A DNA stretch of 64,000 bases from Bordetella parapertussis (GTDB lineage: Bacteria > Pseudomonadota > Gammaproteobacteria > Burkholderiales > SG8-41), in assembly GCA_945906815.1 (NCBI GenBank), contig CAMDRT010000011.1:27091-91090 (forward strand), written 5' to 3'. Position numbers and translations under genes: made by a program. The notes under the pieces were generated by a model. The model ran no database searches. It was given only the letters and a program-made list of their open reading frames with translations, and had not been told where the DNA came from. Within the stretch, counting starts at the first letter, position 1. Every line of letters starts with the position of its first letter. Of the stretch, positions 23,835 to 30,177 are shown one piece after another.

Positions 23835-25145
23835 TTACCCGGCAAGCGCCTGATACACAAGCTGGCGCATCAGCCCGCGCAGCCGCTGCTGCCCCGGCGC
23901 CTGCACCATCATGATGGCGATGAGTTGCTCTTGCGGATCCACCCAGAACGCAGTGCCGAACGCACCGTTCCAGTAGTACTCGCCCACCGATCCGGGCAGC
24001 GGATTTTTGCCTTGCTCGGTGCGCACCACAAAGCCGAGTCCCCAGCCCTGCCCCACGTCGGGCGATGGCCCCGCCGCGCCTTGCGTAACGATATGCGGGG
24101 TGTAGCGTATGCCTGAGGGCAGATGATTGGCAGTCATAGACGCCACGCTATGCTTTGACACGATGCGCACGCCTTCAAGTTCGCCGCCGTTGAGCAGCAT
24201 CTGGCAAAAGCGCACATAGTCCGACGCGGTTGCCACCATGCCGCCACCGCCACCGTAGCGCTTGGGTGGCGACTGCACATTGCGTGTGACGATGCGCTGG
24301 CCGGTGGCTTTGTTGATGTGTGATTCGGCGATGCGCCCGTGATGCGCGGACGGCACCGAGAAACCTGCGTCCCGGATGCCCAGCGGTTTGGAAATGCGCT
24401 CGCGAATAAACGTATCTAGGTCCTGTCCCGATACTACTTCCACCACACGCCCCAGCACATCGGTTGCCACGCTGTAGTCCCAGGTGCTTCCCGGTTGATG
24501 CGCGAGCGGCAGTTTTGACAGCCGCGTGATGAATTCCGGCGTGCTCAACTCCGGGCTGGAAATGCCGGCTTTGTCGTATTCGGTTTTGACCAGCGTCTTC
24601 GCGCCAAATTGGCCGTAGGTCAGCCCTGCGGTATGGCGCAGCAAATCCTGTAGCGTCATCTCGCGGCGCACCGGTTCGAGCACCAGCCTGGTCTCGCCGC
24701 CGGCATCTTTCTGCTCGACGCCAACTTGCAGCCCTTTGAATTCCGGCAAAAAATGCGACACCGGGTCGGTCAGCACGAGCTTGCCTTCTTCGGCCAGCAT
24801 CAGGGTGGCGACCGATACAAACGGCTTGGTCATCGACGCCAAACGAAAAATGGCGTCCGCCGGCATGACATCACCCACTTGCGGATCGCGCATGCCCAGC
24901 GTCTCGTAATAGGCCACCTTGCCGCGGCGCGCGACCAGCAGCACCGCGCCGGGCATGGTGCCTTTGTCGATCTCGGCTTTGAAGGTCTCGGTCAGGCGCT
25001 TGAGACGCTCCGATGAGAGGCCGACTTCTTCCGGAGTTTTCGCGCGCGGCAGGCCCTGCGCCGCCGCTGTGAATGAACACAAACACCACAGTAATGCCGG
25101 CAACGAACGGCGGAGTGCGACGGCGACGTACATGGTGTGCGACAT
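23835..25145 (-). CDS. serine hydrolase (beta-lactamase/EstB family), exported
   Basis: Signal peptide, FRLASMTK (SxxK), LLRHTAG, WDYS, W.GAFGT.FWVDP. Confidence 0.9.
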   Translation of the reverse strand: MSHTMYVAVALRRSLPALLWCLCSFTAAAQGLPRAKTPEEVGLSSERLKRLTETFKAEIDKGTMPGAVLLVARRGKVAYYETLGMRDPQVGDVMPADAIFRLASMTKPFVSVATLMLAEEGKLVLTDPVSHFLPEFKGLQVGVEQKDAGGETRLVLEPVRREMTLQDLLRHTAGLTYGQFGAKTLVKTEYDKAGISSPELSTPEFITRLSKLPLAHQPGSTWDYSVATDVLGRVVEVVSGQDLDTFIRERISKPLGIRDAGFSVPSAHHGRIAESHINKATGQRIVTRNVQSPPKRYGGGGGMVATASDYVRFCQMLLNGGELEGVRIVSKHSVASMTANHLPSGIRYTPHIVTQGAAGPSPDVGQGWGLGFVVRTEQGKNPLPGSVGEYYWNGAFGTAFWVDPQEQLIAIMMVQAPGQQRLRGLMRQLVYQALAG

Positions 25146-25197
25146 AATTCGATCCCTTTTGTGGTTGGCCGCGCGCAATGCTTCGCTTCACTTGTCC

Positions 25198-25932
25198 CTA
25201 TTGCACTGCAGCCCCCAACGACTTGCGTGCCCACTCGGCATAGGTGCCGGTGTCTATCATCTTGCGGCGTATCACGCCGCGCAGGGCTTCGAGTTCCTCA
25301 ACGCTGGGCGCGGGCGTAGCCGCTGCAGGGCCTTCCCCAATGTCAAAGCCGGTACTGTCGCGAATGTCATCCAACGTATAGCCTGGATGCACGGTATCCA
25401 GCCGAAATAACCCCGCGTCCTTGTCAAACAAGAAATTCGCCTTCGGCGTTACCAGCTTGGTGGGATTACCGTGCCGCAGCACATCCGGCGGCGTGCTGCC
25501 GGCGGCGGAGATGTAATCCACTTTCTCCACCAGCGAACGCTGCGTGTGCTCGGTGCGAAATACCACTGTGCGCCGCGCGCCGTAATAGATCATGCCACCG
25601 CCGTAACCACCGGGGAAACGCGCTGTGGGATGATCCAGGTCCGGGCCGAGCTGATGCAGGTTGTAGTTGCCGTGGCGATCCACCTGCACGCCACTGGCAA
25701 AAAACAGACCCAGCTCGCCGCGCTGCGCCAGAAAATGGAATTGCCTGGAGGTGTGAAACGGATTGAAGATGGAATTCAGAATGATCAATTCCGCGTTCGG
25801 TGCGTGCAGTGCCTGTGCCAGCAGCAGGCCGGCAGCAGGAATATGCGACAGTGCTCCGCACGCGGAGATCTCGCCATCGCGCACCTCGCGCGACAGCAGG
25901 ATCACCAGTAATTCGGCGTCCGTGTATGCCAT
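25198..25932 (-). CDS. family I CoA-transferase-fold beta subunit (GctB/IpdB-like)
   Basis: SGVQVDRHGNYN, RFPGGYG, EH..RSLVEKVDYISA, HPG; its ATG overlaps the alpha-subunit stop (TGATG). Confidence 0.88.
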   Translation of the reverse strand: MAYTDAELLVILLSREVRDGEISACGALSHIPAAGLLLAQALHAPNAELIILNSIFNPFHTSRQFHFLAQRGELGLFFASGVQVDRHGNYNLHQLGPDLDHPTARFPGGYGGGMIYYGARRTVVFRTEHTQRSLVEKVDYISAAGSTPPDVLRHGNPTKLVTPKANFLFDKDAGLFRLDTVHPGYTLDDIRDSTGFDIGEGPAAATPAPSVEELEALRGVIRRKMIDTGTYAEWARKSLGAAVQ

Positions 25933-26810
25933 CAGCCCACCACCGCCTGCGCCGGCTGCCGCCACGCCAAGGGGACAAAACGCGCCACATAATCATCGTG
26001 GTCGCGCACGCCATACACGTGCGTCTGTAAATACTCCTCGAACGCGGCATCGTCCTTCGACGCGATCACGTATTGCCGCATGTGGTGGTTGTCGGGCGCA
26101 TACACACCAAGGCACCCCGCCGGGTGGGCGCCAAACGGCGCATGCGCCACGGCATCCACGTGGATGGACGGTATGAAAGCGCCGATCGCTTCCTTTTCCG
26201 TCAAATGGTCAACCACACGCTCGGCGGTGACGATCACGTGTTTCGAGGCTTCCGCCAGTATCACTGCCTCGGCTTCGTAGCCGCAGGACACGTTGCCATG
26301 ACGATCGGCCACCTGCGCGTGGAACACAGCGACGTCCGGGCGCAACGCCTTGGCCACCACTGATTTGGTCTTGCCGTCAAACGGATCAACGGCTATCACC
26401 ATATCGTCGCGGCGCTGCAGCAGATCCGTGCCGACCAACCCCACCACCGGCACGTAGGGCACTCCCATAGACCCAGCCTGGGCCTGTGCAAAGAGCACCC
26501 CTCAGGTATTGTCGAGCGACCGCACTCTGCCCGCCAGCACGTAGCGCACAAAATTAGGACCGCTGCGGGCGAATTCGCCGAAGGTCACGCTGCAGGTGTC
26601 CACCACCTTCACTGCGCCCGCGCCCACCAGAAAATCAATATTGATGTCACCGCCTACCACGCCCACCACGCGCAGGTCGCGCGTGCCCTGCCGCACCAAC
26701 TGGCGCAGCAATGCCATCGGCGCACGATGGATATTGGCGCTCATCACCAATTGCGCGCCGGTCTTGATCGCCGCTGCCGCCTGCTCCAGTGTCGTGAGTT
26801 TGTCACGCAT
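25932..26810 (-). CDS. family I CoA-transferase-fold alpha subunit, 292 aa, in-frame TGA at codon 103 (candidate selenocysteine)
   Basis: MRDKLTTLEQAAA...DFLVGAG...SLDNT-TGA-GVLFAQAQAGSMGVPYVP...RPDVAVFHAQ.AD.HGN...GAHP; both halves in one frame; SD AAGGAGG; downstream SECIS-like hairpin. Confidence 0.85.
26456..26501 (-). promoter_or_regulatory. putative bacterial SECIS hairpin
   Basis: mRNA after UGA: GGGGUGCUCUUUGCAC-AGGCCCA-GGC-UGGGUCU-AUGGGAGUGCCCU; 7-bp upper stem, G-initial loop 23 nt after UGA, lower stem GGGUGCUC/GAGUGCCC. Confidence 0.72.
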
Positions 26811-27003
26811 GTGATCCTCCTTGATCCACGATTCGATTCATTGAAAAATCCGTCCGCCGCAAGCCGACGCTACAACGAAGTGTAGCCCGAATAGCCGCTC
26901 AGTAGCAGACGCTATTCTATTTTCAACCCGGCTGGTTTCACTGACTAGCCATTTCGTTGCACAATAGCCCCGCAATCGTTTTATTTTTTAATGGGAGGCA
27001 TTC

Positions 27004-27957
27004 ATGCTTACTGCGGCAATAGCTTTGTTGATTTTCGCGGCAACCGCGCACGCGCAGGATTTTCCGAGCAAACCGCTACGCATCGTCGTGCCGACGGCAC
27101 CGGGCGGCTCGTCCGACATTCTGGGGCGCCTGATCGGCGCCAAATTGCACGAACGGCTAGGGCAGCCAGCGGTGGTGGAAAACCGCGCCGGCGCCGGCCA
27201 GATGATAGGCGCGGATGTGGTCGCCAAAGCGCCCGCTGACGGGCACACCATGCTGCTGCCCACGGTGACTTACACCACCAGCGCTGCGACCCAATCGAAG
27301 CTGCCGTTTGATGCGGTGAATGACCTGACCGGCATCACCATGATCGGCGAAGGCGTGTTTTTGCTCGCGGTGCATCCGTCGCTGCCAGTGAAATCGGTGA
27401 AGGAACTGCTCGCGCTCGCGCGCGCCAGGCCGGGTAGTCTGATTTATGCGTCGTCGGGAACCGGCGGCATCACGCATTTGATTACCGAGGTGCTCGCCGC
27501 AAACACCAACATCAAACTCGTGCATGTGCCCTATAAGGGCGTGGCGCCCGCGGTCATCGATGTCGTCGGCGGGCATGTGCCGATGATTATCGTCAGCGTG
27601 CCCTCGGTGTTGCCCCAGGTCAAAGCGGGCCGCCTGCGCGCGCTCGCCTCTACCGGCGCGCAGCGCTCCCCGTTCGTGCCCGAACTGCCGACGGTGGCGG
27701 AAGCGGGTGTCCCCGGCTACGAAGCGCGTCAATGGTGGGGCATGCTGGCGCCGGGTAAAACACCGCGCGCCGTCATCGGCAAGCTCAACGGCGAGATCCA
27801 CAACATCCTCGCCTCCGCTGACGTCAAAGCGCGGCTCGCCGACGAAGGCGCCGAGCCGATACTGCGCATGACGCCGGAAGCCTTCAACGACGTCGTGAAA
27901 AACGAGATTGCGAAATGGCGCAAAATCGTCAATCAACTGGGTATCAAGGTGGATTGA
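27004..27957 (+). CDS. Bug/TctC substrate-binding protein
   Basis: FPSKPLRIVVPTAPGG, ENRAGAG, HVPYKG. Confidence 0.93.
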   Translation: MLTAAIALLIFAATAHAQDFPSKPLRIVVPTAPGGSSDILGRLIGAKLHERLGQPAVVENRAGAGQMIGADVVAKAPADGHTMLLPTVTYTTSAATQSKLPFDAVNDLTGITMIGEGVFLLAVHPSLPVKSVKELLALARARPGSLIYASSGTGGITHLITEVLAANTNIKLVHVPYKGVAPAVIDVVGGHVPMIIVSVPSVLPQVKAGRLRALASTGAQRSPFVPELPTVAEAGVPGYEARQWWGMLAPGKTPRAVIGKLNGEIHNILASADVKARLADEGAEPILRMTPEAFNDVVKNEIAKWRKIVNQLGIKVD

Positions 27958-27997
27958 TTTTCTGTATGCCTATGCGCATAGCGCGGGAGGAGGATTG

Positions 27998-28981
27998 ATG
28001 AGACCGGCTCAACCGCTACGCAACCTGAACATCCTGATCGTAGGGTTCGCGGGCTGCTTCGCATCAACCGCCGCCGCGCAGAGTTACCCGATCAAGCCGT
28101 TGCGTCTCATCGTGCCGTTCGCGCCCGGCGGCACCAACGACATCATGGCGCGCGGCATCACGCCGGAGATGAGTGCGATCCTCGGCCAGCAGATCGTCGT
28201 TGACAATCGCGGCGGCGCGAGCGGGCAGATCGGCGCTGAAGCCGTGGCCAAGTCGCCGCCCGATGGTTACACGCTGATGCTGGTGTCGAGTAGCGTGATG
28301 AGCCATGTGCCGGCGGCGTACTCCAAACTGCGCTACGACATGGCGCGGGATTTTGCGCCGGTCGGCAAGGTTGCCGAAGTGCCGCTGGTGATGGTGATGC
28401 ATCTCTCGGTGCCCGCCAAGACCACCAAGGAACTCGTCGCGCTCGCCAAGGCGCGGCCGGGCGAGTTACGGCTGGCGATCGGCGGCACTGGCACCACCAG
28501 CCATTTGGTTACGGAACTGTTCGCGCTCTCCACCGGCATCCGCGTGCTCATCGTGCCCTACAAGGGCGCGGGCCCCGCGCTGGTCGATCTGTTGGGCGGC
28601 CACGTCGACGGGCGCATCGACCAGATACCGTCATCGATGACGCACATTCAATCGCACCGGCTGCGCGCTATCGCCGTCACCACCGCGCGCCGCGCCGAAC
28701 TGCTGCCCAACGTGCCGACACTGAACGAATCGGGCGTGCCGGGCTTCGACGCCAGCTCGATGCTCGGCGTGTTCGTTGCGATGGGTACGCCAGCGGAGAT
28801 CGTGCAGCGCCTGAACGCGGCACTCAACAAGGTGCTGACCCATCCAGCAGTGCTGGAACGCTTCGCGTCACAAGGCGCCGAGGCGCGTCCCGGCAGCAGC
28901 GAGGATTTGGCGAAGTTCGTGCGCGAGGACTTCGCCAAGTGGAAAAAGGTGGTGCAGCAGGCGAAGCTTAAGTTCGAGTGA
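27998..28981 (+). CDS. Bug/TctC substrate-binding protein
   Basis: YPIKPLRLIVPFAPGG, VPYKGAGP; SD ggagga. Confidence 0.93.
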   Translation: MRPAQPLRNLNILIVGFAGCFASTAAAQSYPIKPLRLIVPFAPGGTNDIMARGITPEMSAILGQQIVVDNRGGASGQIGAEAVAKSPPDGYTLMLVSSSVMSHVPAAYSKLRYDMARDFAPVGKVAEVPLVMVMHLSVPAKTTKELVALAKARPGELRLAIGGTGTTSHLVTELFALSTGIRVLIVPYKGAGPALVDLLGGHVDGRIDQIPSSMTHIQSHRLRAIAVTTARRAELLPNVPTLNESGVPGFDASSMLGVFVAMGTPAEIVQRLNAALNKVLTHPAVLERFASQGAEARPGSSEDLAKFVREDFAKWKKVVQQAKLKFE

Positions 28982-29027: not shown

Positions 29028-30023
29028 CTACTTCTTCGCCAATTCCAGATCCACCAGAATCGCCTTGATCTCGGGGTATTCTTCTTCCATGCGTTTTTTC
29101 ATGGCTACGGCACCCACGAATTGGGTGATGCTGCTGCGCTTGACCATTTCCGCCTTCCACTCCGGCGTCTCCAACAAACGCTGAAAATGGCTCTCCCAGT
29201 AGGCCACCTGCTCCGGCGTCATGCCCTTGGCGCCGAACATGGCGCGCCAGTTGAACACCACCGTATTCGCGCCCTGCTCGCGCCACGTCGGCGTGCCCGA
29301 AAAAAATCCCGCTACCCGCTCGGCCGAGGACACCGCAATCACTCGCGCCGCCCCGGTTTTCACGTGAGACTCCCAACTGCCCAACGACACCGGCACGGCA
29401 TCGATATGCCCACCCAGCATCGCGGTAATCGCCAGCGCGCCCGAATCGAAAATCACGTTGCGGGTCTTGCGGATATCGATACCCGCGATCTTCAACGCGC
29501 CCGCCACGCCCTGATGATTGATGTTGCCGATGCTGGTGGCGATGCCGATGCTGTGTGCGGTGGGGTCCTTCTTCAGACGCTCCAGCAGATCGCGGCCCGA
29601 CTTGATCGGCGAATCTGCCTTCACCGCGATGCCGATGTATTCGCCGAACAGAATCGCCACCGGCGTCAGATCAGTGTAGACGCTCCTGCCCATCGCGTGA
29701 TTGGCCAACACCCCCTGGTCGCCGTGATACAGATAATGGCCGTTGCCCTCAAACTGTTTCAGATAGGTGCGCAGGACCGCGCCCATGCCGCCCCCTTTGT
29801 TCTGAATGGTGATCGGCGCATCAAAATAGCGGTGGGTCTGGAACACACGCTGCATGACCCGCGCCACGCTGTCGGGGCCGCAACCTGGCGCGCAGCCCAC
29901 GATAATCTCGACCGGCCGCTCGGGCTTCCAGCCCTGTGTACCCTGAGCGGGCGCGGACAGCGGCATAGCGGCCAACAGTGCCGCGGCAATTTTCAGGTTG
30001 CGCACCCATGCCGAAAGTTTCAT
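29028..30023 (-). CDS. TctC-type substrate-binding protein
   Basis: WKPERPVEIIV, NKGGG, PTWREQG, NWRAMF. Confidence 0.9.
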   Translation of the reverse strand: MKLSAWVRNLKIAAALLAAMPLSAPAQGTQGWKPERPVEIIVGCAPGCGPDSVARVMQRVFQTHRYFDAPITIQNKGGGMGAVLRTYLKQFEGNGHYLYHGDQGVLANHAMGRSVYTDLTPVAILFGEYIGIAVKADSPIKSGRDLLERLKKDPTAHSIGIATSIGNINHQGVAGALKIAGIDIRKTRNVIFDSGALAITAMLGGHIDAVPVSLGSWESHVKTGAARVIAVSSAERVAGFFSGTPTWREQGANTVVFNWRAMFGAKGMTPEQVAYWESHFQRLLETPEWKAEMVKRSSITQFVGAVAMKKRMEEEYPEIKAILVDLELAKK

Positions 30024-30177
30024 GAACCTTCCTCCAACGCATTGTTGATTTAGATCACTCACGCCGCCCGCGCCCCCGACGACCTCACCCCCTCAATCTG
30101 CGCTTTGATAACTGGGAGTTGTGTGTGAGGCATGAAACGCGAACAGTGAAATGTGAAGTGCGGGGCATGGGCACGTT

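Follow-up and report, generated by a model that had tools for sequence, protein, structure and literature searches.

A probable selenocysteine insertion element in the alpha subunit gene of a CoA-transferase-fold enzyme from a Burkholderiales genome

The window (the whole stretch of DNA analysed, 64,000 nucleotides (nt) of Bordetella parapertussis assembly GCA_945906815.1, contig CAMDRT010000011.1, positions 27,091 to 91,090) contains, on its minus strand, the gene for the alpha subunit of an enzyme with a CoA-transferase fold, in which an in-frame UGA codon is followed directly by a stable stem-loop. Judged on the combined sequence evidence, this stem-loop (26501..26456) is very probably a genuine bacterial selenocysteine insertion sequence (SECIS) of the canonical type, and the UGA would be read as selenocysteine (Sec). 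The gene, the codon and the parts of the RNA element are as follows.

25932..26810, minus strand: alpha subunit gene, GctA/IpdA-like CoA-transferase fold; 292 codons plus stop, with the predicted Sec at codon 103
26502..26504, minus strand: in-frame UGA, codon 103, predicted to be read as selenocysteine; TGA conserved in orthologs, Cys in homologs
26456..26501, minus strand: whole 46-nt stem-loop; minimum free energy (MFE) -24.9 kcal/mol
26469..26485, minus strand: upper stem-loop AGGCCCA-GGC-UGGGUCU (17-nt hairpin AGGCCCAGGCUGGGUCU), the likely SelB-binding core; -8.4 kcal/mol alone
26476..26478, minus strand: apical loop GGC, nucleotides 24-26 after the UGA; invariant in 37/37 orthologs
26472..26486, minus strand: codons 109-113, CAG GCC CAG GCT GGG; the sole synonymously invariant run in the gene

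An in-frame UGA and the stem-loop behind it

Two minus-strand open reading frames (ORFs), 26810..26502 and 26498..25932, are neighbours in the ORF listing, lie in one frame and are split by a single TGA. Read-through of this TGA (26504..26502) gives a 292-residue protein whose match to PF01144 (CoA_trans) covers residues 6-223 in one stretch that spans the TGA (E 4e-18). Alignments to solved structures in the Protein Data Bank (PDB) also cross the TGA uninterrupted, the closest being GctA (1poi_A, E 8e-32), AibA (5mzw_A, E 2e-26) and IpdA (6co6, 6coj and 6con, about 1e-20). A GGAGG motif at 26820..26816 lies 5 nt before the ATG of codon 1, and at the other end of the gene the ATG of the beta subunit overlaps the alpha stop codon (TGATG). 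The CoA_trans fold is found in both subunits (beta, PF01144 E 2e-11).

The RNA from 26501 to 26456 folds exactly as an earlier note on this DNA had described, as a stem-loop that directly follows the UGA; the fold reproduces the note's upper stem and its GGC loop 23 nt from the UGA. The hairpin begins at the first nucleotide 3' of the UGA with a lower stem of 10 base pairs (bp), GGGGUGCUCU/GGAGUGCCCU, which includes G-U pairs. Above it come an internal loop of 3 nt, the two pairs CA/UG, one C/A mismatch and finally the upper stem of 7 bp, AGGCCCA/UGGGUCU, which loses one pair, leaving 6 bp, in ortholog rows where column 36 has changed from U to C. The consensus model of bSECISearch (Zhang and Gladyshev 2005), its constraints taken as quoted in PMC13188914, prescribes 3-9 nt in the apical loop and 4-16 bp in the upper stem, at least one G at the first two positions of the loop (mostly GG or GU), a spacing of 16-37 nt between UGA and apical loop, and an MFE of -7.5 kcal/mol or lower. 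The fit to this model proposed earlier on the grounds of a small loop, an early G and the spacing extends to all of its structural constraints: the loop (3 nt, GGC) and the upper stem (7 bp) fall inside the limits, G stands in the first two loop positions, the spacing is 23 nt, and both the whole hairpin (-24.9 kcal/mol) and the upper hairpin alone (-8.4 kcal/mol) are stable enough.

Like the SECIS elements of the Escherichia coli fdhF/fdnG type, the candidate is a stem-loop right after an in-frame UGA within the coding region, with a small apical loop that starts with G within the 16-37 nt range and a conserved upper stem. The fdhF loop of E. coli contains GU, whereas the alpha-gene loop is GGC, and the E. 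coli-type element has a bulged U where the alpha-gene hairpin has the C/A mismatch below its upper stem. Unlike the genes with E. coli-type SECIS elements, the alpha gene is not among the selenoprotein families of the catalogues searched.

The UGA is conserved in every ortholog for which DNA was found. When the read-through protein was searched against 60 related genomes, 24 orthologs came back (63-96% identity), each with exactly one TGA, and 12 more came from 400 further genomes sampled across the order; matches at E <= 1e-60 were limited to three families of the order. TGA stands at the aligned codon 103 in 37/37 genome orthologs (63-100% identity, three bacterial families, window included), or in 36/36 if one ortholog from an unpublished genome (L060, genome G239) is excluded, within the motif DNT-U-GVL[FY][AS]QAQAGSMG. 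The same TGA and upper hairpin are present in 9/9 loci from metagenome contigs and in 7/7 loci from public metagenome-assembled genomes (MAGs). The latter probably overlap with the genome orthologs, and the titles of their records name Betaproteobacteria, Burkholderiales and Nitrosomonadales, two of them being Bordetella parapertussis MAG. The earlier note had named absence of the hairpin from other TGA orthologs as a possible refutation; the upper hairpin occurs in each of the 37 loci from genomes and the 9 from metagenomes. We note separately that the orthologs L059 (G431) and L061 (G360) are listed with 2 TGA within the match.

Where the site is not TGA, the closest homologs have cysteine. 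P0002, which is full-length and 72% identical, has Cys at site 103 (DNTCGVIYSQAQAG, DNTCGV), and so do all of the nearest distant relatives (36-43% identity). Six distant homolog loci have TGC or TGT at the site, and in the Cys homologs the flanks are conserved on both sides. Among 133 full-length rows (131 representatives, the query and P0002), site 103 is E in 47, C in 35, N in 18 and another residue in 33, the count for C including P0002 and the query, its Sec written as C. On these alignments, the distribution of TGA and Cys is the classical Sec/Cys pattern. The conserved TGA (37/37 plus 9/9), Cys in homologs and domain matches that run across the TGA all argue, as the note had proposed, for recoding rather than a nonsense mutation.

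Selection on the RNA itself is indicated by synonymous sites. Codon diversity was measured in a codon alignment of the 37 orthologs at 142 columns that are degenerate and have an amino acid at least 90% conserved. It is zero in just 5 of the 142, and these are contiguous: codons 109-113, nucleotides 16-30 after the UGA, a stretch that takes in the loop and most of the upper stem. Mean diversity is 0.227 over codons 104-118 vs 0.436 elsewhere (Mann-Whitney P = 0.0019). Of 143 sliding windows of fifteen codons, the eight with the least diversity begin at codons 97-104. Because all columns share one tree, the local dip is not explained by relatedness. The upper hairpin is, as far as aligned codons can tell, under RNA-level selection, and this is the strongest evidence for a SECIS.

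The earlier remark that several codons in the hairpin have unusual A/T third positions holds in part. As a count it is not significant (5/15 codons vs 22.5% in 12 neighbouring genes, binomial P = 0.23); several of the codons are individually rare and conserved across orthologs. In the 12 neighbouring genes, the share among synonymous codons is 5% for GCT (Ala), 3% for TCT (Ser), 8% for GGA and 12% for GGG (both Gly), and among the orthologs GCT is kept in 37/37, GGG at codon 113 in 37/37 and TCT in 29/37.

A second, paralogous alpha subfamily (~33% identical), found in other genera of the same bacterial family, has one TGA in each gene. In seven of its loci (L046-L052) this TGA, set in the motif LEEHA-U-MTLVAGLRAA, falls on aligned codon 103; codons +6 to +10 (GGG CTG CGT GCA GCC) are identical in 7/7 while the flanking codons vary synonymously. 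The hairpin differs (GGGCUGCGUGCAGCC, GGGCUG-CGUG-CAGCC). Two diverged subfamilies would thereby keep different sequences that are predicted to fold at an equal distance from the same recoded codon, which is an independent replicate. Fragment clusters extend this picture: the representatives P0139, P0197, P0212, P0225 and P0230 stand for 50%-identity clusters of fragments that start just after site 103 (for example MYSMVQAGSMGAPF and MLMALQAGASGLPF), and from their sequences such clusters suggest that there are more Sec-containing subfamilies.

The genome of the window also encodes most of the machinery for Sec insertion. It has selA (578.2 bits), selB (455.8 bits) and tRNA-Sec (selC, 75.8 bits), all above curated cut-offs and adjoining one another on one contig (C12:1467-6038), and a formate dehydrogenase (FDH) alpha gene with one in-frame TGA (RI-U-HAPT) on another (C18:22717-25779). 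selB occurs in 5/5 tested genomes from five genera, all carrying the ortholog, and selD in 5/5 relatives carrying it, where selD has its own TGA (GGG-U-GCK) and hairpin. These genes allow a comparison within the lineage. The apical hairpin is CCA-GUC-UGG in FDH of the window's genome, with the loop 19 nt after the UGA, and CAGC-GUU-GCUG in selD of the relatives, with the loop 20 nt after the UGA. That of the alpha gene is CCCA-GGC-UGGG with its loop at 23 nt, 3-4 nt further on. All of them have 3-nt loops starting with G (GGC, GUC and GUU) and CCA/UGG-like stems, whereas the lower stem of the alpha-gene hairpin is much longer and more stable than in the FDH and selD hairpins.

Evidence against a SECIS and alternative explanations

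Fold stability was compared with shuffled sequences and with the window's own genome (60% G+C). The 46-mer has a z of -2.17, with 6/200 shuffles as stable or better, and the upper 17-nt hairpin (-8.4 kcal/mol) has a z of -1.73. Among 2994 sampled 46-mers 3' of random TGA trinucleotides, 11 are as stable or better (mean -11.4, sd 4.5). The hairpin belongs to the top 0.4% of post-TGA folds, and ~500 such sites are expected among the 139,302 TGA trinucleotides of the genome. The fold is unusual, yet only moderately above chance and not decisive on its own.

A number of results weigh against the assignment as a SECIS. In a 71-nt context the z of the fold is only -0.23, no better than shuffles, and Rfam release 15, whose holding of bacterial SECIS models was not checked, gave zero matches, either at gathering score over the window or at E <= 10 over 26380..26580. 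No significant covariation was found in the 37 orthologs, 76/500 shuffles reaching the observed score. In the upper helix 7 of 9 pairs are invariant across 26 distinct rows, and such invariance is uninformative about pairing as such. Close Cys orthologs would offer the most direct comparison, and the DNA of one was not found: scans with P0002 of genome and metagenome contigs returned TGA forms only (7 and 9 loci). The order-wide sample gave a match in 17/401 genomes, all TGA, and the class-wide sample in 1/400 other genomes, 41% identical with TGT. The mean energy of the post-codon 46-mer is -15.3 kcal/mol in Sec subfamily 2 and -15.1 kcal/mol in six Cys homologs, and the Cys form of subfamily 2, L053 (G053:C177, ENACATV), has a -22.6 kcal/mol hairpin directly 3' of its TGC. 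The protein motif itself adds to hairpin propensity through partial self-complementarity in the codons for QAQAG and LQA, and Cys forms repeatedly show small CUGCAGGC hairpins owing to the LQA motif. Finally, selD is absent from the window's assembly in searches with TIGR00476, NF002098 and blastn with the selD of a relative.

Several of these points can be placed. Because the assembly is 95.25% complete (in 97 contigs) and 5/5 relatives have selD, its absence is read as an assembly gap, though it is also a gap in the evidence; the best selD match in the assembly looks, from its sequence, like ThiL and was rejected. Given the null result for covariation, the case was rested on synonymous-site invariance instead. 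The lower helix changes mostly on one side, with one double change, and its cells are paired in 88.5% vs 97.4% in the upper stem; the lower stem is the less constrained part of the hairpin. Hairpin stability was rejected as a discriminator of Sec and Cys forms, the means of subfamily 2 and the Cys forms being equal. The hairpin might, the earlier note had warned, prove equally present in Cys orthologs: it is not shared by the six distant Cys homologs, though one of them has the -22.6 kcal/mol hairpin, which could have arisen by chance or be left over from an earlier SECIS. The L053 match is also listed with 3 TGA near its end.

Among the alternative explanations, recoding or read-through of the UGA with no Sec, for example by hairpin-stimulated near-cognate insertion of Trp or Cys, fares best and is itself very improbable. 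Downstream structures can stimulate read-through in general, and the failure to find selD in the assembly is in its favour. The pairing of the site with Cys in homologs is, by contrast, the signature of Sec; selA, selB and selC are present, selD and selB each occur in 5/5 tested relatives carrying the gene, and the hairpin, besides fitting the bacterial SECIS model, is similar to those of FDH and selD in the lineage.

A shade less probable again is a UGA that acts as a true stop, with two polypeptides made (102 amino acids (aa), and 178 aa from Met115) and the hairpin serving, for example, coupling or mRNA stability. In 37/37 orthologs the stretch from the stop to Met115 (codons 104-114) stays in frame and its protein sequence is conserved, and this speaks against such a split, as do the continuous Cys form P0002 and the Pfam and PDB alignments that cross the site within one domain. 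It is true that an ATG is present at codon 115 and that public gene calls include 178-aa proteins starting MGVPYVP; a GGAGG-type site precedes codon 1, whereas none precedes Met115.

It is more improbable still that Sec is inserted with the SelB determinant elsewhere, and that the invariance of codons 109-113 has another cause, for example translation kinetics tied to particular codons or an overlapping element. The argument for it is the lack of covariation to prove pairing. No terminator-like or promoter-like site was found at 26456..26501, so that a terminator or promoter reading of the hairpin was dropped, and no opposite-strand ORF of at least 60 aa over 26456..26501 is in the ORF listing; subfamily 2 also has a hairpin, of unrelated sequence, at this offset. 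Least probable of all is a pseudogene with a nonsense mutation and a chance hairpin, which could appeal to the about 0.4% of the genome's post-TGA 46-mers that are as stable and to the z of -0.23 in wider context, and which is contradicted by the conservation data, namely that orthologs as distant as 63% identity share the TGA and the upper hairpin (37/37 from genomes, 9/9 from metagenomes) and that both protein halves are under purifying selection.

If the stem-loop is a SECIS, it would act by analogy with E. coli fdhF and fdnG. SelB with GTP and Sec-tRNA(Sec) would bind the apical hairpin (stem GGCCCA/UGGGUC, loop GGC) and deliver the tRNA once the UGA enters the A site. As the lower stem starts directly after the UGA, the ribosome would have to open it, and this less conserved stem is probably only accessory. 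The predicted product is a 292-residue protein with Sec103, paired with a beta subunit that would lack the catalytic glutamate of true CoA-transferases. SelB binding, selenium incorporation and a catalytic role of Sec103 are what we infer from these comparisons.

The enzyme and its predicted selenocysteine site

The genes around the alpha gene are as follows.

25198..25932, minus strand: beta subunit gene, PF01144 E 2e-11; not part of the RNA element
23835..25178, minus strand: beta-lactamase-family (PF00144) gene of 447 codons, directly downstream of beta
27004..28981, plus strand, and 29028..30062, minus strand: three TctC (tripartite tricarboxylate transporter receptor) genes flanking the operon

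Across 53 loci, the beta gene lies 3' of alpha in 47 and genes for TctC-family receptors adjoin the alpha/beta pair in 26. The beta-lactamase-family neighbour was rejected as a conserved partner, being found in 1/53 loci, that of the window.

The residue aligned with Sec103 is Gln in GctA and Gly in AibA. In IpdA it is a Glu (E117 of 6co6_A and E115 of 6con_A), and in 6coj_A an Ala. The 6coj Ala is probably the E105A catalytic mutant of IpdA, and this Glu would then be the catalytic residue. The alpha glutamate of the IpdAB type, at the position altered in 6coj, is absent here, with Sec or Cys in its place. In the beta subunit, the position of the catalytic Glu54 of GctB aligns with Leu52/Asn53, in a weak HMMER stretch (i-Evalue 1.1). 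Glu48 lies nearby and varies, with Q or D in its place in 3 orthologs; the motif HAP[ND]AELIIL[NGD][ST] is conserved apart from its Glu, replaced in the same way in three orthologs. IpdAB likewise has no beta glutamate and is not a CoA-transferase, according to PMC5380842.

Neither known type fits in full. The enzyme shares with IpdAB (COCHEA-CoA hydrolase of Rhodococcus jostii and Mycobacterium tuberculosis; 6co6, 6co9, 6coj and 6con) the two-subunit CoA-transferase fold, and differs from it in that the similarity reaches only E 1e-20 and that TctC receptors adjoin the genes instead of steroid-catabolism neighbours. GctAB (1poi) and AibAB (5mzw) are its best sequence matches and agree in subunit sizes and in the order of alpha then beta genes, whereas the beta subunit here, unlike that of GctAB, has no Glu at the GctB catalytic position in the weak alignment. 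Relatives of the Cys type carry only generic function names, for example 'CoA transferase subunit A'. From sequence comparison, we file the enzyme as having a CoA-transferase fold and as neither a CoA-transferase nor an IpdAB.

Sec103 is presumably catalytic. A tentative proposal, which we hold with somewhat less than even confidence, is that it could be the catalytic residue of an undescribed CoA-transferase-fold class, defined by the lack of the beta glutamate and by an alpha Cys or Sec at the spot of the IpdA Glu. In such a class Sec103 may act as a nucleophile (through an acyl-seleno or acyl-thioester intermediate) or as a base. The beta subunit has, near its N-terminus, a Cys in the motif ISACGALS that is conserved in nearly all orthologs and is a possible partner of Sec103.

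Annotation and meaning for the family

The split at the UGA is visible in databases. Of 120 database proteins listed, 119 are C-terminal pieces of 170-190 residues, ~60% of the query, and P0002 is the sole full-length entry; three pieces that were fetched start at Met115. Of the cluster representatives, two stop exactly at ...DNT and nine begin with MG[VA]P[YF]VP. Gene callers split the alpha gene in essentially every genome or metagenome that carries it, and recognition of the SECIS restores the complete enzyme.

No CoA-transferase-like selenoprotein was found in a search by term of the text and tables of the 2026 review PMC13188914, in a 2022 review, in the deep-Sep and GOS papers, in a 2022 preprint on eight unexpected families, or in the BSepDB paper with part of one supplement. 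Full-text literature searches, with subscription papers and full supplements outside their coverage, found no such selenoprotein. NCBIfam has no dedicated model, and two of its generic models match below their cut-offs. The alpha subunit thus appears to belong to an uncatalogued selenoprotein family, with priority of others possible.

Two Sec subfamilies occur in Burkholderiales-type MAGs, which suggests a widespread Sec form that several lineages evolved or retained. If the proposed class is real, this would be a selenoenzyme for acyl-CoA/carboxylate chemistry rather than classical redox chemistry, its substrate would be a carboxylate imported via TctC-type receptors, and the beta Cys of ISACGALS might partner Sec103. 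Most bacterial selenoproteins are redox enzymes. Selenium in an enzyme of CoA-transferase fold, where members of the superfamily have Glu, Cys or Asn at the site, would point to unusual chemistry and offers a clear residue to test.

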